Both the position numbers and the translations under genes were made by a program. The notes under the pieces were generated by a model, which had not been told where the DNA came from, ran no database searches, and saw nothing but the letters and a program-made list of their open reading frames with translations. From Polyangiaceae bacterium (GTDB taxonomy: Bacteria > Myxococcota_A > Polyangia > Polyangiales > Polyangiaceae): a stretch of DNA of 64,000 nucleotides. Shown here piece by piece: positions 4,894 through 54,296 of this stretch. Each line of letters starts with the position of its first letter. Position 1 is the first letter of the stretch. The stretch covers positions 34,688-98,687 of the forward strand of contig JBGANF010000008.1 in the NCBI GenBank assembly GCA_044222475.1. Direction: 5' to 3'.

Positions 4894-7296
4894 TCACTCG
4901 ACCCGAACCTCGCCGGCCGTGACTCGCACGAACAGGCGCTCGGCGGCGAAGACGTAGCCGGGCCCCGGCGTCGATCGCAGGTCTTGCTCGGAGGCGCGCT
5001 TGGGAAGCTCCACGCTGCCGTCGGTCACCTTCGATGGCGACGCGGGGCCGCCGGTGCGACGCCTCAGGTCGAGGTCGACCAAGGCTTCCTTCGCGCGCGA
5101 TCCCGGCACGAGCTTCACCGCGAGCTTCGTCCCGTCGTCGATGACGTCGAGCTGCGTTCCGTCGTCCCAACGCGCCGACTTCGACCCTCGAACGATCGCG
5201 CGAGCCTCGACGTCGCTGCGACTGGCGAGGCTGACGATCGACGGCGCGACCGCCGGTGCGAGCGTGTCGATGCCGGCGGGGTAGAGCGGCACGAGCGCGC
5301 CTTCGCGGACGAAGAAGGGAGGCCTTCCGATGGGGGCGGGCACCGTCTCGTCGCGCGGTCCCTCGAACGTCGATCCGTCGTCCCAGCGCACCCATCGGCC
5401 GGGAGGAAAGTGCACGAGCCGCTCGGCCTTCCCCGGTTCGATCACCGGAGCGACGAGCAGGTCGGGACCGAGGAGGTACTCGTCGTCCGCGTGGGTGCGA
5501 GCGCCGGCGTCGGTCGGGAAGGCGAGCGGGAGAGGGATGACCGTCGGCGCTCCGGTCGTCTCGGCGCCGACGAGGAGCTGGGTCAGGTACGGGATCAAGC
5601 TCGTGTGGAGCGTGGCCAGATCCTTGTAGATTGCACTAGCCTCTTCGTCGTAGCTCCACGGCGCGTGGCTCTCGCCCGCGCCGCCGAGCTGAAGCACCAC
5701 CGACAGCGCCGAGCTCTCGGCCCAGCGCAGGAGCGACTCCCTCGTCGGTTTGCCGTGGCGATAGCCGCCGGTGTCGGCTCCGAACGAGGGGAAACCGCTC
5801 ACCGCCAGCGACTGCGCCGCGACCACGCACGCCGGGAGCCCGCCGACCGCGCGCTGACCGCCGATGAGGTCGCCGAAGTGCTCGAAGCCGTTGTCGAGAT
5901 CGCCGGGCCAGATGACGATTGCGTTCGACTTCACGTCGCCGAAGCTCGACGCGCGAACGACGAGGAACCCGTACGACGACGCGGCGTCCAGCGCTTGCTG
6001 GTACGCGCCGTGATAGCCGATCGGGTACGCGCGGGCGGTGCGTCCGGTGGAGCCGTCGCCGAAGTGGAGATCGAAGCGAGTCGAGAAGAAGGCGGGGATG
6101 AGATCCTCGCCGTAGTCGAGCTTGAACGCGGAGAACCCGGCGTCGGTCGCCGTCTTGGCGGCGCTCGCCCAGAACGCGCGGCCGCCGTCGGTCGAGAAGT
6201 CGATCATGCCGAAGCGCTTCTTCGAGTCGAACCCGGGCGCGGCGAAGGGCTTGTTGTCCGCGTCCCTGACCAGGAACCCCTTGGCGTCGGCGTCGGCGAA
6301 GAGCTGCTGGGCCTTGTTCGCCGGGGGGGCGCCCTGCGGGTTGTCGACGTAGGGCGTCGACCACGCGAGCGGCCGGAAGCCCTGATCGCGCAGCGTGGTC
6401 ATCATCGCGGCCGCGTCGACGAAGCGCGCCGGATCGAGGGTGAAGTCGTTGTAGGAAGTCTGCCAGGGGTTGTCGATCCAGAACGAGGTCGTCGGGATGT
6501 GGCGCGTGCGGAGCTCCTGCGCGTCTCCGAGCGCGACGCCGTCGTTCGCCCACTCGTTGCGCCAGTACATCGGCGCGAGGGCTTCGCGCGGCAGCGCTCG
6601 GGGGAGGCCGACGCGTTGATTGTACTTTGCAACAATTGCGAGCGGGTCGCGGTTCACGAAGAGATACGCGTCGATCGCGCCGCCCTCGATCGTCGCCGCG
6701 AGCGCGTCGCCCTTGGTCTTGCCGACGTCGAACGCGCCAGCCTCACGGCTCTGCACGAAGAGGCCCCAGCCGCGCGACGAGACGAGGAACGGGATCGGGA
6801 CGTGGCGCTCGTTCGTACCGCTCTCGCTGCCGCCGTCGAGCGCCATGTGCATCGCGACGATCTGGCCTCGCGGGTCGACGTGATCGAAGCGCTCGCCGGT
6901 GCCGGCCAGGAACTCGTCGCCGAGAGATGCCGCCAGCGCGACGAGCGAGCCGGCGCCGCTCACGCTCACGTGCAAGACCCCGGGCTCGGCTGCCTCGAAC
7001 CCGATGCTGGCCGGCGGCACCGCGGCGAACGTGGTCAGGTCCGCTTTCTCCGGGTCGTGCCACGCGTCGACGGCATCGGCATCGGTCCACCGCGCGAGCA
7101 GCACGCGACCCGGTGGCGATCCGAGCAACGGAGCACCGTCGCGGGTGACGACGTACGAACCGTCGTCGTAGAGCGTCGCGATCTGCGCGTCGCCGAGGTC
7201 GACGACGCGCAGGGGCTTCTTGGTCGGAGCGACCGGTTCGTCACCGCACGCGAACGCGAGAGTCACCATTCCGGCGAGGAGGAGCGGGCGGCGCAC
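4894..7296 (-). CDS. glycoside hydrolase family 31 (YicI-like alpha-glucosidase/xylosidase), lipoprotein
   Basis: Lipoprotein signal MRRPLLLAGMVTLAFACG. KLDYGED resembles the YicI nucleophile motif KTDFGE. WPGDLDN and FGADTGGY resemble the GH31 WxGDNxS and GADICGF acid/base region. Size is 800 aa. Confidence 0.6.
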   Translation of the reverse strand: MRRPLLLAGMVTLAFACGDEPVAPTKKPLRVVDLGDAQIATLYDDGSYVVTRDGAPLLGSPPGRVLLARWTDADAVDAWHDPEKADLTTFAAVPPASIGFEAAEPGVLHVSVSGAGSLVALAASLGDEFLAGTGERFDHVDPRGQIVAMHMALDGGSESGTNERHVPIPFLVSSRGWGLFVQSREAGAFDVGKTKGDALAATIEGGAIDAYLFVNRDPLAIVAKYNQRVGLPRALPREALAPMYWRNEWANDGVALGDAQELRTRHIPTTSFWIDNPWQTSYNDFTLDPARFVDAAAMMTTLRDQGFRPLAWSTPYVDNPQGAPPANKAQQLFADADAKGFLVRDADNKPFAAPGFDSKKRFGMIDFSTDGGRAFWASAAKTATDAGFSAFKLDYGEDLIPAFFSTRFDLHFGDGSTGRTARAYPIGYHGAYQQALDAASSYGFLVVRASSFGDVKSNAIVIWPGDLDNGFEHFGDLIGGQRAVGGLPACVVAAQSLAVSGFPSFGADTGGYRHGKPTRESLLRWAESSALSVVLQLGGAGESHAPWSYDEEASAIYKDLATLHTSLIPYLTQLLVGAETTGAPTVIPLPLAFPTDAGARTHADDEYLLGPDLLVAPVIEPGKAERLVHFPPGRWVRWDDGSTFEGPRDETVPAPIGRPPFFVREGALVPLYPAGIDTLAPAVAPSIVSLASRSDVEARAIVRGSKSARWDDGTQLDVIDDGTKLAVKLVPGSRAKEALVDLDLRRRTGGPASPSKVTDGSVELPKRASEQDLRSTPGPGYVFAAERLFVRVTAGEVRVE

Positions 7297-49455: not shown

Positions 49456-50526
49456 GTGAACGACTCCGCGGCTCTCCACGATCTCGCCTTCTCGCTCGAT
49501 CTCTCCGAGCTCGCTGCGCTGCGCGCCCAGTTCGAGCCGATCGTCGGCCCGGCGGCGCAGGAGGCTCGGCGCGCCGCGCTCACCGCCGCGTACCGCGATC
49601 AAGGGATCGCGCTCGTCCTCGGTGCCGGCGTGAGCGTCGGCGTGGGCGCACCGAGTTGGACCGAGCTCATGGGGCGCCTCGTTCTCGGCGTCGTCGGCGC
49701 AAAGCTCGAGCCCGGCATGCCGATCAGTCCGCTCTACGAGCCGTTCAGTCGTCTGCTCGGCGAGACGCTCCCGAGCGACGCGCTCGTCGTCGCGCACTAC
49801 GCCAAGCTCGCGCTCGCCAACCGAGCACAGCCCACGGACGAAGCCTTCATCCGCGTCCTCCGTTCGGCGCTGTACCCCCCGGCCGCGCTGGCCGCGAGCG
49901 ACCTCTTGGCCGAGCTCGCCGCGATGTGCAGTCCTCCGGAGGACGGCGCCGTCGGAGTTCACGAGGTGATCACCTACAACTACGACGAGTTCTTCGAGGA
50001 GGCGCTCGTCGCGGCGGGGATCGATTTCCAGACGGTCGATCGCAACGAGCGTGCGCGCGGCGCGCTGCCCGTCTTCCACCCGCACGGGATCGTCCGTCGT
50101 GATCCGAGCTCCACCGGCAACTGGGTGGTCCTCGCCGAGGACGAGTACCACCGGCAGTTCGCCGCGCCTCACTCCTGGTCCAACGTGGTTCAGCTCAACG
50201 CCTTCAGTCAGATGCGGTGCTGCTTCGTCGGATCGAGCATGACCGATCCGAACCTGCGAAGGCTCCTCGCCGCCGCGCACACCGGCGGCCCGCCCGAGCA
50301 CTTCGCCCTCCTGCGCCGGCGGAGCGTCGCCGGCACGCTGCGGCGCATCGCCGACGCGTACGACGGCATCCCCGCCGAGCTGCAGCCGGCGCTGCGCGCG
50401 CGGGTCCAAGTGGCCTGCCTCGGTGGCGACGTGGCGGACGACATGACGCTCGCCGCGCTCGGGACGCAGGTCGTCTGGTTCGACGAGTTCGAAGAGCTCC
50501 CCGGTCTCCTCCGCGCGCTCACGTGA
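49456..50526 (+). CDS. SIR2-like domain protein (SIR2_2 / PF13289-type), GTG start
   Basis: Motifs in the family order: IALVLGAGVSVGVGAPSWTELM (GAG-S...P-W), VITYNYDEFFEEAL (TNYD box), VFHPHGIV (HG) and CCFVGSSMTDPNLRRLL (F-G-S-x-D-N). No Zn-ribbon of canonical sirtuins. 7 nt after the acyl-CoA DH stop and 13 nt before the next gene. Confidence 0.7.
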   Translation: MNDSAALHDLAFSLDLSELAALRAQFEPIVGPAAQEARRAALTAAYRDQGIALVLGAGVSVGVGAPSWTELMGRLVLGVVGAKLEPGMPISPLYEPFSRLLGETLPSDALVVAHYAKLALANRAQPTDEAFIRVLRSALYPPAALAASDLLAELAAMCSPPEDGAVGVHEVITYNYDEFFEEALVAAGIDFQTVDRNERARGALPVFHPHGIVRRDPSSTGNWVVLAEDEYHRQFAAPHSWSNVVQLNAFSQMRCCFVGSSMTDPNLRRLLAAAHTGGPPEHFALLRRRSVAGTLRRIADAYDGIPAELQPALRARVQVACLGGDVADDMTLAALGTQVVWFDEFEELPGLLRALT

Positions 50527-50539
50527 TAGAGGACGGTCC

Positions 50540-53092
50540 ATGTGTGGCGTCATCGGGTTGATCTACGAGCGTTCGAGGGATGATCTGGGGCAAGTCGCGG
50601 CCGAGCTTCTTCGTACGCTCGAGTATCGCGGCTACGACTCCACCGGCGCCGCGATCCAGGGCGACGGCGAGGACGTCGTCCTCGCGAAGGGCGTGGGCGC
50701 ACCGTCCGTCATGGTGCACGACCTCGGCATCACGCGGATGCGGGGCCGTGCGTTCTGCGGACAGGTCCGATGGGCCACCTTCGGGGCGGTGACCAACGAG
50801 AACTCGCAGCCCCACGTCGTCCGCTGCAAGACGTTCCTCTACGGCGCGCACAACGGCAACGTCACCAACTGCGACGATCTCAAGGCGTGGCTCACGTCGG
50901 AGGGGCACGCGGTGCTCTCCGACAACGACGGCGAGATGGTCGTCCACACGGTGGAGCACTTCTTCGCCCGCGAGCTCGACCGCTCGGCCGAGAAAGACGC
51001 GAACGCGCGGCGCCGCTGCATGCGCGCCGCGCTACTCACCGCCGCGGCGAAGCTCGAGGGATCGTTCGCCGCCGTCATCGTCGACCCGGTCACCCGCGTG
51101 ATGTGGGCGATCAAGCAGGGCTCGAGCTTGTATTTCGGCGTCGGTCACGACGCGGTCTCCGGCCACTTCGCGATCGCGTCGTCGGATTTGTCGTCGGTCC
51201 TCAAGCTCACGCGCGTCGTCGTCCCGATCACCGAGGGCGAGTTCGTCGAGTACGAGCCGGGCTCTCACCAGATCTACGCGATCGTGGATCGGCCGGCGGC
51301 AAAGCTCCGTGCCGGGCAGCCGCTCGATCGCGAGCCGGTACGAAGCCGCCTGCGCGCGAAGGACACGGCGCTCATCCCTCCGTTCGAGACGTTCATGGAT
51401 CAGGAGATCAGCGCACAGGCCGACACCGCGCGCGAGGTCGTGACCCTCTTCCTCGGCGGGTCGGAGGCTGCCCGGGCGATCGGCTCGGTCGCGCTCCGGC
51501 CCGAGATCGCGACGCACCTCGATGCGCTGCGCGATCTCTACGACGACGATCGCATCAAGACCGAGTTCCACGCTCTCGTCGATCTGCCCGCCTTTCGCGA
51601 GCTCCTCGAGAAGGTGCCCGACGTGGTCGCCCGCGCCGAGCAGCTCCACTCGGCGGAGGCCGGGTTCTTCACCGACCTCTTGTCGATGGCGCGGGACCGC
51701 TCCGACACCGTGGCGGTGCGCTTGCTCGATGCCATCCTCGAAGCCGAAGAGGTGCGCGAGTACGGCGCGCTCGTCGACCGCTTCGGCACGATGTGCCTCG
51801 ACGCACTGTCCGCGCGCGGGCGCATCTACGTCATCTGCTGCGGCAGCTCGTACCACGCGGCCAAAGCGGCGAGCCTCTTCTTCAACGAGCTCGCCCACGT
51901 CGAGCTCACGCCGATCCTCCCCGGCGAGTTCCGTGGTCAGTCCGCGAAGTCGCTCGCCGACGGCGATCTCGTGATCGCGGTGAGCCAGAGCGGCGAGACG
52001 AAGGACCTCATCGACGTCCTCAACGACGTGATCGCCTCCGGGCGCGCGGTGCGCCGCGTTGCGCTCGTGAACAACGTGAACTCCACGCTCGCGCAGGAGA
52101 AGAGCGACCTCGTGATCCCGCTCCGCTGCGGCCCCGAGATCGCGGTGCCGGCCACCAAGAGCTTCATGAACCAGATGGTGGTCTTCTACTGCCTCGCGCT
52201 CCACCTCGCCGAGCGGCGCTCGCCGGCGGCGAAGGACCTCGCGGTGCGGCGCGAGAAGCTGCGCTCGCTCCCCGAGCTCGTCCGCGAGACCGTCGCCACG
52301 ACCGACGTCGACATCGAGGTCGCGGCGAAGCTCCTCTACTTGTCGCCGAGCATCCACCTGCTCGCGACCCGCATCTCTGCCGTCGCCAAGGAGGGCGCGC
52401 TGAAGATCCGCGAAGTGGTCCTGAATCACACCGAGGGCTTCGAGGCCTCGGAGTTCAAGCACGGCCCCAACACGATCCTCGGGTTCAACACGGTGCTCGG
52501 ACCGGGGCGCGTCGACGCGATGCTCAAGCGCCTGGGGTTCATCCTCCGCAACGTCGTCTCCGAAGCCGCGCGCGAGAAGATGGATCCCGAGTCGGTGCAG
52601 CGCGTGATCCAGGCGGCGACCGACTCCGTCCTGTCACCGACGTCGACGCCCTTCTCGCTCTCGGCCGCCGAGCGCGCGCTGTTCGAGCGCACCGTCGATC
52701 ACGCCGAGCTCGTCGCCGAGCTCTACGCCGACTACCCGCTCGTCTACGTGACCGGGCCCGACGAGCGCGACGTGGCGCTCACCGTCTCGCAGATCAACAC
52801 CCACAAGATCCGCGGGTCGTGCACGGTCGTCGTCGCCGAGGATCACCCCGCGCTCCGCGGCGCCGCCACCAAAGCGCCGATCGACAACGCGTCGTACTGC
52901 TCCGTCTACATCACGCTCCCGCGCACCGACGACACTCTGATGGCGATGTTCTCGGCCACCGTTGCGCTCCAGCGGCTGGCGCTGTCGATGAGCCTCCTCA
53001 AGAAGCACTACCTCGACCGTCTCGGAATCGCCGAGCACGGAGTCCACCCCGACGTGCCGAAGAACGTGAGCAAGTCGATCACCGTCGATTGA
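50540..53092 (+). CDS. atypical GlmS-like protein: class-II (Ntn) glutamine amidotransferase domain + two SIS domains, 850 aa with insertions
   Basis: The catalytic Cys is right after Met (MCGVIG). SIS motifs are VICCGSSYHAAKAA, VIAVSQSGETKDLIDVL and EGALKIREVVLNHTEGFEASEFKHGP, with a C-terminus PKNVSKSITVD like GlmS PRNLAKSVTVE. A roughly 130-aa insertion lies between the FMDQEI linker and the first SIS domain, and further insertions follow. An SD-like GAGGA is 6 nt upstream. Confidence 0.75.
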   Translation: MCGVIGLIYERSRDDLGQVAAELLRTLEYRGYDSTGAAIQGDGEDVVLAKGVGAPSVMVHDLGITRMRGRAFCGQVRWATFGAVTNENSQPHVVRCKTFLYGAHNGNVTNCDDLKAWLTSEGHAVLSDNDGEMVVHTVEHFFARELDRSAEKDANARRRCMRAALLTAAAKLEGSFAAVIVDPVTRVMWAIKQGSSLYFGVGHDAVSGHFAIASSDLSSVLKLTRVVVPITEGEFVEYEPGSHQIYAIVDRPAAKLRAGQPLDREPVRSRLRAKDTALIPPFETFMDQEISAQADTAREVVTLFLGGSEAARAIGSVALRPEIATHLDALRDLYDDDRIKTEFHALVDLPAFRELLEKVPDVVARAEQLHSAEAGFFTDLLSMARDRSDTVAVRLLDAILEAEEVREYGALVDRFGTMCLDALSARGRIYVICCGSSYHAAKAASLFFNELAHVELTPILPGEFRGQSAKSLADGDLVIAVSQSGETKDLIDVLNDVIASGRAVRRVALVNNVNSTLAQEKSDLVIPLRCGPEIAVPATKSFMNQMVVFYCLALHLAERRSPAAKDLAVRREKLRSLPELVRETVATTDVDIEVAAKLLYLSPSIHLLATRISAVAKEGALKIREVVLNHTEGFEASEFKHGPNTILGFNTVLGPGRVDAMLKRLGFILRNVVSEAAREKMDPESVQRVIQAATDSVLSPTSTPFSLSAAERALFERTVDHAELVAELYADYPLVYVTGPDERDVALTVSQINTHKIRGSCTVVVAEDHPALRGAATKAPIDNASYCSVYITLPRTDDTLMAMFSATVALQRLALSMSLLKKHYLDRLGIAEHGVHPDVPKNVSKSITVD

Positions 53093-53110: not shown

Positions 53111-53506
53111 ATGCGTGACCTCGCGACCAAGCGCTTCGGGCCGGCGGTAGGCGCTCTCGTCGAAGACGAGCGCAAGCGGCGCGCGCAGCGCCCCGCGTGG
53201 ACCTACGCCGATCGGCCGCCGCGTCGCGCGGTGCTCGTCGCGAGCTTCGGTCGTCACGCGCAGGTGAAGATCCAAATCGACCCACGCGCCGAGGGCGTCG
53301 AGGCTCCGGCGCGCCTGCGCGACGAAGCGCGCATCTCGTTGACGCTCACCGAGGCGACGCCGAACCTCGTGATGGGTCCCGACCAGTTGAGCTTCACCCT
53401 CGACGACGAAGGCGTCCCCTTCGCGTGGGTCGTCCCGTGGCCGGCGGTGCGCGCGATCACCGTGGTCGGCGCGGAAGATCGCGGTTTCACCTGGGACCCT
53501 GCCTGA
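53111..53506 (+). CDS. hypothetical protein
   Basis: 131 aa with normal composition. It begins 18 nt after the GlmS-like stop, so it is possibly co-transcribed. Confidence 0.4.
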   Translation: MRDLATKRFGPAVGALVEDERKRRAQRPAWTYADRPPRRAVLVASFGRHAQVKIQIDPRAEGVEAPARLRDEARISLTLTEATPNLVMGPDQLSFTLDDEGVPFAWVVPWPAVRAITVVGAEDRGFTWDPA

Positions 53507-53561: not shown

Positions 53562-54296
53562 ATGGCCGGTCCCGCGCGCGTGCTCCTCGTGATGGTCGCG
53601 CTGCTCGCCGCACCAGCGTTCGTCGCGTGCGGCGCGCGGTCGGAGCTCGGCAACGGGCCGCTGGACGGAGGCGAAGACACCACCACCGATCGCGACGTGC
53701 GCACGGACGGGGACGCGCGTGCGGACGCGGATGCGCGCACCGACGCGGACGCGGATGCGGATGCGCGCACCGACGCGGATGCGGACGCGGATGCGCGCAC
53801 CGACGCGGATGCGGATGCGGATGCGCGCACCGACGCGGATGCGGACGCCGGCGCCGCCGATGCGACGCTGTTCCTCACCGCGATCGCAGTGACTCAGGAT
53901 CACGTGCAGCCGGGCGATCAAGGCCTCACCCCCGACGGACAACCCGACGGCGAGTTCACCGCGATCGCGAACGGAGCGTTCGACGCGTTCATCCTCGTCA
54001 CGACCAACCTCGTCGGCGATCCCTCGTTCGGACAACAGTGGGACACGCTCGTCGGTCAGGATCCGATCCCGCCCGGGTTCTCGTTCACGATCGGCGGCCA
54101 GACGTGGATCCTCGGAGTCTGGGAGAACGCCGTGCGCCTCAACGACGTGAACGGACGCGTGTCGATCCCCGCGGGGCCGCACACGCTCACGCTCTACGCC
54201 GCGAACAGCGGCTACTTCAACCAAGGCCGGCGCTTCCGCCTGTACGGGCGCTCCAACGCCACGTGGATCTCGAGCAACATCGCGGTGTGGCCGTAG
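53562..54296 (+). CDS. lipoprotein with tandem DADADADART decapeptide repeats
   Basis: Signal MAGPARVLLVMVALLAAPAFVACG. Four to five tandem in-frame 30-nt repeats encode TDADADADAR. The C-terminal 150 aa is non-repetitive. Confidence 0.55.
   Translation: MAGPARVLLVMVALLAAPAFVACGARSELGNGPLDGGEDTTTDRDVRTDGDARADADARTDADADADARTDADADADARTDADADADARTDADADAGAADATLFLTAIAVTQDHVQPGDQGLTPDGQPDGEFTAIANGAFDAFILVTTNLVGDPSFGQQWDTLVGQDPIPPGFSFTIGGQTWILGVWENAVRLNDVNGRVSIPAGPHTLTLYAANSGYFNQGRRFRLYGRSNATWISSNIAVWP
53700..53850 (+). repeat. in-frame tandem repeat, about 4.5 units of 30 nt (cgacgcggatgcggacgcggatgcgcgcac)
   Basis: Directly visible periodicity in the sequence inside CDS 53562..54296. Confidence 0.85.

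Follow-up and report, generated by a model that had tools for sequence, protein, structure and literature searches.

An unusually long GlmS-like protein encoded in a 64,000-nucleotide stretch of DNA (the window) from a Polyangiaceae bacterium (GCA_044222475.1, contig JBGANF010000008.1, positions 34,688 to 98,687) raised two questions: whether it is a genuine glucosamine-6-phosphate (GlcN-6-P) synthase, and whether it serves its host as the housekeeping enzyme or as an added paralogue. The open reading frame (ORF) lies at 50540..53092 on the + strand and, on the combined evidence of the reading frame, Pfam and NCBIfam matches and its orthologues, is a complete long-form glmS-type gene of 850 codons plus stop. 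GlmS catalyzes the committed step to UDP-N-acetylglucosamine, and hence to peptidoglycan, lipopolysaccharides and exopolysaccharides, and is an antibiotic target. The most probable interpretation, to which a probability of roughly 0.7 was assigned on the basis of sequence, is that the ORF encodes a functional glutamine:fructose-6-phosphate amidotransferase (EC 2.6.1.16) with GlcN-6-P synthase chemistry, that it belongs to a separate clade of long enzymes whose insertions are accessory, and that it contributes to the ordinary supply of the cell envelope.

The length of the protein was not an artefact of the assembly. The ORF was a single uninterrupted frame with zero internal stops that began with ATG-TGT (Met-Cys), 13 nt after the stop codon of the preceding gene. 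A Shine-Dalgarno-like GAGGA (50529..50533, + strand), read from the sequence, was located 6 nt 5' of the ATG. The identical 850-residue protein was called on four independent contigs, including one from the NCBI assembly GCA_964652985.1. A fusion of two genes or an internal frameshift, a circumstance in which the first-pass annotation would have withdrawn its interpretation, was looked for and excluded, and nothing was found in its favour. The probability that fusion, frameshift or mis-assembly produced the extra length is negligible, because the insertions sit inside domains rather than at the boundary between two genes and recur at the same positions in hundreds of full-length orthologues.

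Pfam assigned the N-terminal region to the class-II glutamine amidotransferases (GATase_6/7) and a SIS domain to residues 424-553 (3.5e-26), and alignment with E. coli GlmS located the individual elements, all on the + strand. The N-terminal nucleophile (Ntn) glutaminase domain, residues 1-262 (50540..51325), starts with MCG and contains the equivalents of E. coli Cys1, R73/W74, N98/G99 and D123. The interdomain linker and first isomerase helix follow at residues 263-302 (51326..51445; 82% identity within the myxobacterial family) and include FMDQEI at 285-290. SIS subdomain 1, residues 428-558 (51821..52213), carries the sugar-phosphate binding sequences CGSSYH and SQSGET, the latter at 482-487. 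The first part of SIS subdomain 2, residues 576-643 (52265..52468), includes the block EGALKIREV...EFKHGP (618-643), in which K622, E625 and H641 are the equivalents of K485, E488 and H504, and the remainder occupies residues 725-821 (52712..53002). The C-terminal tail, HGVHPDVPKNVSKSITVD (53039..53089), is 99% identical within the family and has an invariant lysine, K845, at the position of the Schiff-base Lys603. The GlmS-like motifs that had been read from the sequence in the first-pass annotation, namely the Cys1 domain, FMxxEI, both SIS blocks and the terminal KSITVD, were each confirmed by this alignment.

Eighteen catalytic or substrate-binding positions (Cys1, R26, R73, W74, H86, N98, G99, D123, S303, S347, Q348, S349, T352, the ATK lysine, K485, E488, H504 and K603 in the E. 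coli enzyme) were compared in 78 members of the long clade drawn from about ten phyla, and all 18 proved invariant or nearly so. The N-terminal catalytic cysteine was present in 78/78. The remaining glutaminase-site equivalents, R26, R73, W74, H86, N98, G99 and D123, were all found in the window protein and were invariant or conserved in 77/78 members. The isomerase region consists of two SIS subdomains with equivalents of S303, S347-Q-S349, T352, K485, E488 and H504, and the C-terminal lid ends in ...NVSKSITVD. The Ser/Thr, Lys and His residues that bind fructose 6-phosphate in the SIS domains, a check called for by the first-pass annotation, were thus all conserved to this extent. The best match among PDB sequences was E. 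coli GlmS, which aligned in two stretches (1-254 and 416-649), and the predicted fold could be superposed on it over 545 residues.

The top NCBIfam matches of the native protein were the two GlmS models, TIGR01135 with 293 bits and NF001484 with 311 bits. When the insertions were deleted in silico, the resulting 596-residue core scored 412 bits with NF001484, above the subfamily cut-off of 381 bits and aligned over 1-601 of 601 positions, and 403 bits with TIGR01135, just under the equivalog cut-off of 418 bits. The rescoring indicated that the low native scores are largely due to the insertions together with real divergence. SIS-only deaminases of the NagB-II and GlmD types have no glutaminase domain, whereas the window protein has a complete one, and its scores with these models were far lower (85 bits against a cut-off of 430, and 29 against 580).

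Several observations weigh against the assignment. The native 850-residue protein falls below both curated GlmS cut-offs, and the NCBI Prokaryotic Genome Annotation Pipeline (PGAP) names the clade proteins "SIS domain-containing protein" rather than GlmS, while the Joint Genome Institute (JGI) uses GlmS or "GlmS-like". A literature search found no publication on this long clade and no characterised member. Moreover, the predicted local distance difference test score (pLDDT) of the AlphaFold2 model was below 50 at residues 605-648, the stretch with K622, E625 and H641, so that the model does not confirm the geometry of the active site; a shallow alignment of closely related sequences may account for the low confidence in this well-conserved segment.

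A protein of this fold could also carry out another chemistry, either as an amidotransferase acting on a different ketose phosphate or as an enzyme running mainly as a deaminase. The native scores are in keeping with such a change, as are the insertions that flank the sugar site, one after the His-loop and one before the C-terminal tail, and the motif KHGPNTILGxNT, which is found throughout the clade where canonical enzymes have KHGPLALI. Against it, the residues that bind and process fructose 6-phosphate (S303, S347, Q348, S349, T352, K485, E488, H504 and K603) are all invariant or nearly so, the glutaminase site and the tail are intact, and the deaminases of this superfamily have no glutaminase domain and gave far lower scores. 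A different chemistry was accordingly considered improbable and the 850-residue protein very probably a genuine GlmS-type synthase, as judged from its sequence.

The reaction would then proceed as in other enzymes of the family. On the strength of its conserved residues and fold, the protein is predicted to hydrolyze glutamine with the N-terminal cysteine of the Ntn domain, and the ammonia would pass to the two-SIS isomerase domain, where CGSS and SQSGET would hold fructose 6-phosphate. The equivalent of H504 is expected to open the sugar ring, that of K603 to form the Schiff base and those of E488 and K485 to carry out the isomerization, beneath the conserved C-terminal tail. The approximately 240 extra residues would be lineage-specific decorations outside the catalytic machinery, and the GlcN-6-P formed would most likely be used for ordinary cell-envelope synthesis and not for a specialised pathway.

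The window protein is a member of a distinct, old and widespread "long" GlmS clade and is not a one-off. A word-indexed search returned at least 120 full-length orthologues of 813-897 residues with 65-89% identity, and the named ones among the best 120 were Labilithrix, Polyangiaceae or Myxococcales metagenome-assembled genomes (MAGs). Overall, the long form has hundreds of orthologues of 780-940 residues in many, mostly uncultured, bacterial phyla. Closed or nearly closed genomes that encode it include OY762964.1, OY771587.1, OY760505.1, OZ223236.1, JADJPE010000005.1 and JGI 3300056831 Ga0558120_00001. A phmmer search of 1.84 billion representatives gave full-length matches in a single stretch (848-917 residues, 571-1101 bits, identity down to 39%), followed by a gap in score from 571 to 290 bits, at which the canonical GlmS proteins of about 600 residues began, matching in two or three pieces. 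In a GTDB scan of one genome per species, the groups among the matches listed were Myxococcota (including Bradymonadia), Cloacimonadota, Delongbacteria, Ozemobacteraceae/Riflebacteria, Oligoflexia, Acidobacteriota, UBP6, Elusimicrobia, Bacteroidota (Salinivirgaceae) and Spirochaetota, including the isolate Rectinema subterraneum. With a spirochaete-labelled member as the query of a second search, Exilispira, Aminicenantes, Kapabacteria and CSSED10-310 were also recovered.

In a neighbour-joining tree (73 taxa, 590 columns, 100 bootstraps), the long clade was monophyletic in 100/100 bootstraps and was grouped, again in 100/100, with a sister set of proteins of about 600 residues. With its own clade and its scores below the NCBIfam glmS cut-offs, the protein is distinct from canonical GlmS, as had been proposed at first pass. 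The best-scoring short relative, P0155, belongs to the sister set, and its own relatives are GlmS proteins, so named by PGAP, of Asgard archaea (Thorarchaeota, Promethearchaeota, Sifarchaeia); the Asgard link of the set comes through P0155, the sole sister representative traced to an organism. The sister proteins share LxYRGYDS, FM(L/D)xEI, SQSGETKD, VPATK, SSEFKHGP and the tail end TVD with the long form, but they have 597-610 residues and none of the five insertions, and pass the glmS equivalog cut-off with 504 bits.

One member of the clade carries a species label that looks doubtful. The locus L063 (DYJT01000003.1) is labelled "MAG: Brachyspira murdochii", but the nearest named relative of its long GlmS was that of an Exilispira sp. 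MAG (76%), and no cultured Brachyspira was present among the 120 matches to it. The genome paper of Brachyspira hyodysenteriae lists one glmS, and true Brachyspira were absent among the long-form matches.

The 241 residues by which the protein exceeds E. coli GlmS are mainly contained in five insertions, with a few further gaps of 3-8 residues. Insertion 1 (residues 141-160; 50960..51019; net gain 13) is a lengthened helix-loop-helix within the glutaminase domain. Insertion 2 (residues 303-427; 51446..51820; about 110 gained in one block) is an all-helical domain of about 125 residues at the boundary of the linker and SIS-1, with a last helix of 38 residues. Folded alone it gave a confident helical domain (pLDDT 91), and no relative was found in Pfam, among PDB sequences or among PDB folds. 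Insertion 3 (residues 644-724; 52469..52711; net gain 81) is helical and starts immediately after the His-loop; its first residues form the NTILGxNT motif shared across the clade. Insertion 4 (residues 776-789; 52865-52906; net gain 10) is clade-specific and lies inside the second SIS subdomain, while insertion 5 (residues 822-833; 53003..53038) adds 12 residues to the last helix before the C-terminal tail. The helical insertion before SIS-1 and the total of about 240 extra residues noted at first pass were therefore borne out, with 125 and 241 residues, respectively.

The insertions are of two kinds. Insertions 4 and 5 occur in every clade member, with 14-16 and exactly 12 residues (78/78), and act as signatures of the clade. 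Insertions 2 and 3, with medians of 136 and 80 residues, vary in length across phyla (23-90 residues within the clade for insertion 3) and evolve approximately three times faster than the core; within the myxobacterial family, identity to the window protein was 57% in these two insertions and 82-86% in the catalytic cores. Two short members, L088 with 665 residues (DATELQ010000062.1, "Thermoanaerobaculia") and L089 with 686 (DCLA01000019.1, Myxococcales UBA1660), retain insertions 4 and 5 but have neither insertion 2 nor the greater part of insertion 3. Since L088 pairs with the 878-residue P0121 in 100/100 bootstraps, its loss is secondary. In at least one nested lineage, insertion 2 has thus disappeared along with the larger part of insertion 3, so that the basic function does not depend on the large insertions and these are not part of the catalytic machinery. 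Insertion 2 is an accessory and probably regulatory element. The pairing of L088 with P0121, which is placed among the sequences from Myxococcota, points to horizontal transfer or to an error in binning.

Where the insertions are placed suggests what they may do. Insertion 2 is at the junction of the glutaminase and isomerase domains, insertion 3 comes after the His-loop, a segment that in E. coli GlmS extends into the active site of the partner subunit, and insertion 5 precedes the lid-forming tail. Judged from these positions, the large insertions most likely tune interdomain coupling, oligomerization or allosteric feedback.

The known enzymes with which it was compared differ in arrangement. 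E. coli GlmS (PDB 4amv, 1jxa, 2j6h; TIGR01135) is about 31% identical and belongs outside the long clade. The window protein shares the structural features and key residues of this bacterial type, but not the canonical length, the cut-off score, the glmU neighbour or the glmS ribozyme. The best-known long, allosterically regulated GlmS is eukaryotic GFAT1. In GFAT1 (PDB 6r4e, 6zmk), the approximately 77 extra residues all precede SIS-1, mainly in the glutaminase domain as is typical of its kind, whereas the extra length of the window protein consists mostly of insertion 2 and insertions 3-5. The two proteins are collinear from SIS-1 to KHGP (220 against 216 residues), but GFAT1 has only about 99 residues after KHGP, compared with 204, and does not have insertions 3-5. 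The search of PDB sequences with insertion 2 found no similarity. Rhizobial NodM shows that a genome may carry an additional GlmS-type gene. NodM-like paralogues are, as far as is known, of canonical length and reside in nod or biosynthetic clusters, in contrast to the 850-residue protein, which has no such context.

It was also asked whether the long form is the housekeeping synthase or a specialised paralogue that operates beside a canonical glmS, providing GlcN-6-P for a particular condition or polymer under the distinct regulation afforded by its insertions. The genomic context was examined in 86 loci, the window and 85 others, extending 6 kb to either side of the gene. A tblastn search with E. 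coli GlmS of the 64-kb window and the 85 related loci found the long gene only, and none of the 86 loci had a match to E. coli GlmU, GlmM, NagA, NagB or NagC in the 6 kb on either side. In the window and in five of the loci, no Rfam family was detected, the glmS ribozyme included. A canonical Myxococcota GlmS was sought among high-GC representatives of about 600 residues, but those that could be traced came from Chloroflexota, Nitratireductor and Thermoplasmatota. The literature on long or atypical GlmS and on glmS in the carrier taxa yielded nothing relevant, and the supplementary tables of the MAG papers checked had no K00820 or glmS entries.

Two aspects of the distribution count against its being the sole GlmS. 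The clade is patchy within phyla, and no cultured Polyangia genome (Sorangium, Labilithrix luteola, Chondromyces and others, with genomes of 10-16 Mb) was among the best 120 matches, in which the sole contig of about 9 Mb was a JGI metagenome contig. Both are accommodated as well by an added paralogue as by replacement of the canonical gene. Large myxobacterial genomes often keep paralogues, and the separate clade with scores below the glmS equivalog cut-off could likewise indicate a specialised enzyme.

The gene neighbourhoods argue the other way. Genes for secondary metabolites, polysaccharides, antibiotics or amino-sugar specialties were never found near the long gene in the 86 loci, and the core of the protein is under very strong purifying selection. 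The sole deep synteny seen was in Cloacimonadota, where the order was bamA, a radical-SAM gene, ispD, long glmS and ispF, the long gene splitting the usual ispD/ispF pair. This bamA-ispD-X-ispF block was found in 17-19 species (loci L028-L044, L055, L083, L086 and L087, within 5 kb on either side), ispD preceding the long gene in 19 loci and ispF following it in 17. In the Myxococcota locus L007, ispH (LytB) is divergently upstream of the long gene. The core envelope and isoprenoid neighbours, together with the small Cloacimonadota chromosomes (3-4 Mb in this set), on which redundancy is less likely, favour a housekeeping role. A specialised paralogue is consequently the less expected outcome, although it retains appreciable weight. 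Judged by its gene neighbourhoods, by its conservation and by the small size of the genomes in several carrier phyla, the long form is somewhat more likely than not to be the main GlcN-6-P synthase of its hosts and, in this organism, the main GlmS or the only one. The first-pass view that it is unlikely to be the housekeeping synthase is not proven, and the evidence leans, if at all, against it.

In the window, the gene belongs to a series on the + strand with gaps of 7-18 nt, in the order acyl-CoA dehydrogenase, SIR2_2, glmS-type gene and a weakly SspB-like ORF. The SIR2_2-domain protein (49456-50526, + strand, 356 residues) had weak ThsA-like PADLOC matches (E 7e-12). It had been suggested that the insertions mediate an interaction with this upstream protein, for which a defence or NAD-linked module would be a possible setting, and the 13-nt gap on the same strand and the ThsA-like matches are compatible with that idea. 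The comparison of loci did not sustain it. No defence partner of the SIR2_2 gene, whether Thoeris ThsB or another, could be recognised, and PADLOC returned nothing for the 850-residue protein. Neither a SIR2 homologue nor any other of the window's neighbours (five proteins tested) was found beside the long gene in any of the 85 other loci. Orthologues with 74-84% identity had unrelated neighbours on both sides; that with 89% identity, whose contig ends 40 nt upstream, differed from the window in its downstream gene, the only side visible. Furthermore, the insertions are conserved in phyla in which the gene has no SIR2 neighbour. Functional coupling is thus very improbable and was rejected, and the adjacency is a local accident.

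The two ORFs that follow were recorded for completeness. The first (53111-53506, + strand, 131 residues), 18 nt 3' of the glmS-type gene, matched SspB, a ClpXP adaptor, with 25.5 bits, under the cut-off of 27, and was not beside the glmS-type gene in the other loci examined. The second (53562-54296, + strand, 244 residues) has a signal-peptide-like N-terminus and a 30-bp unit repeated 4.6 times in tandem at 53712-53848 (92% matches), which encodes an acidic repeat, (D-A)n-R-T. Its counterpart on a contig from another sample (L002) has 242 residues, which suggests that the length of the repeat varies.

The N-terminus is not uniform across the clade. The window protein begins directly with MCG, without an N-terminal extension, whereas in members from Cloacimonadota, Delongbacteria and some Acidobacteria the catalytic cysteine is not residue 2 and is preceded by 13-55 residues, the longer values depending on the true upstream Met. 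The extension ends in the conserved sequence ...(K/R)IP(V/I)PxxG(L/I/V)G|CGVLG and was located at approximately position 5900-6000 of loci L028-L030, L032, L034-L041, L043, L044, L053, L055, L056, L059, L083, L084, L086 and L087. By analogy with B. subtilis PurF, it implies a propeptide that would be removed autocatalytically.

At the level of the window, the gene encodes a normal-looking, intact amidotransferase next to an unrelated SIR2 gene, and the finding is of moderate interest to enzymologists and genome annotators. A broader proposal, put forward tentatively because it is rather unlikely to hold in full, is that a broad range of phyla, mostly uncultured, have no GlcN-6-P synthase other than the long form, so that their hexosamine pathway appears broken in annotation. 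In this proposal the long form would derive from a GlmS lineage whose sole traced short relative is Asgard-archaeal, and insertions 2 and 3 would form a built-in allosteric switch, providing feedback at the protein level in lineages that yielded neither glmS ribozymes nor GlmY/GlmZ. The 125-residue helical domain at the interdomain junction, which has no known relative in sequence or fold, may represent a new mode of GlmS regulation. Because the clade proteins are named "SIS domain-containing protein", the pathway may be wrongly taken to be missing when the metabolism of Cloacimonadota, many Myxococcota, Spirochaetota, Acidobacteriota and candidate phyla is reconstructed.

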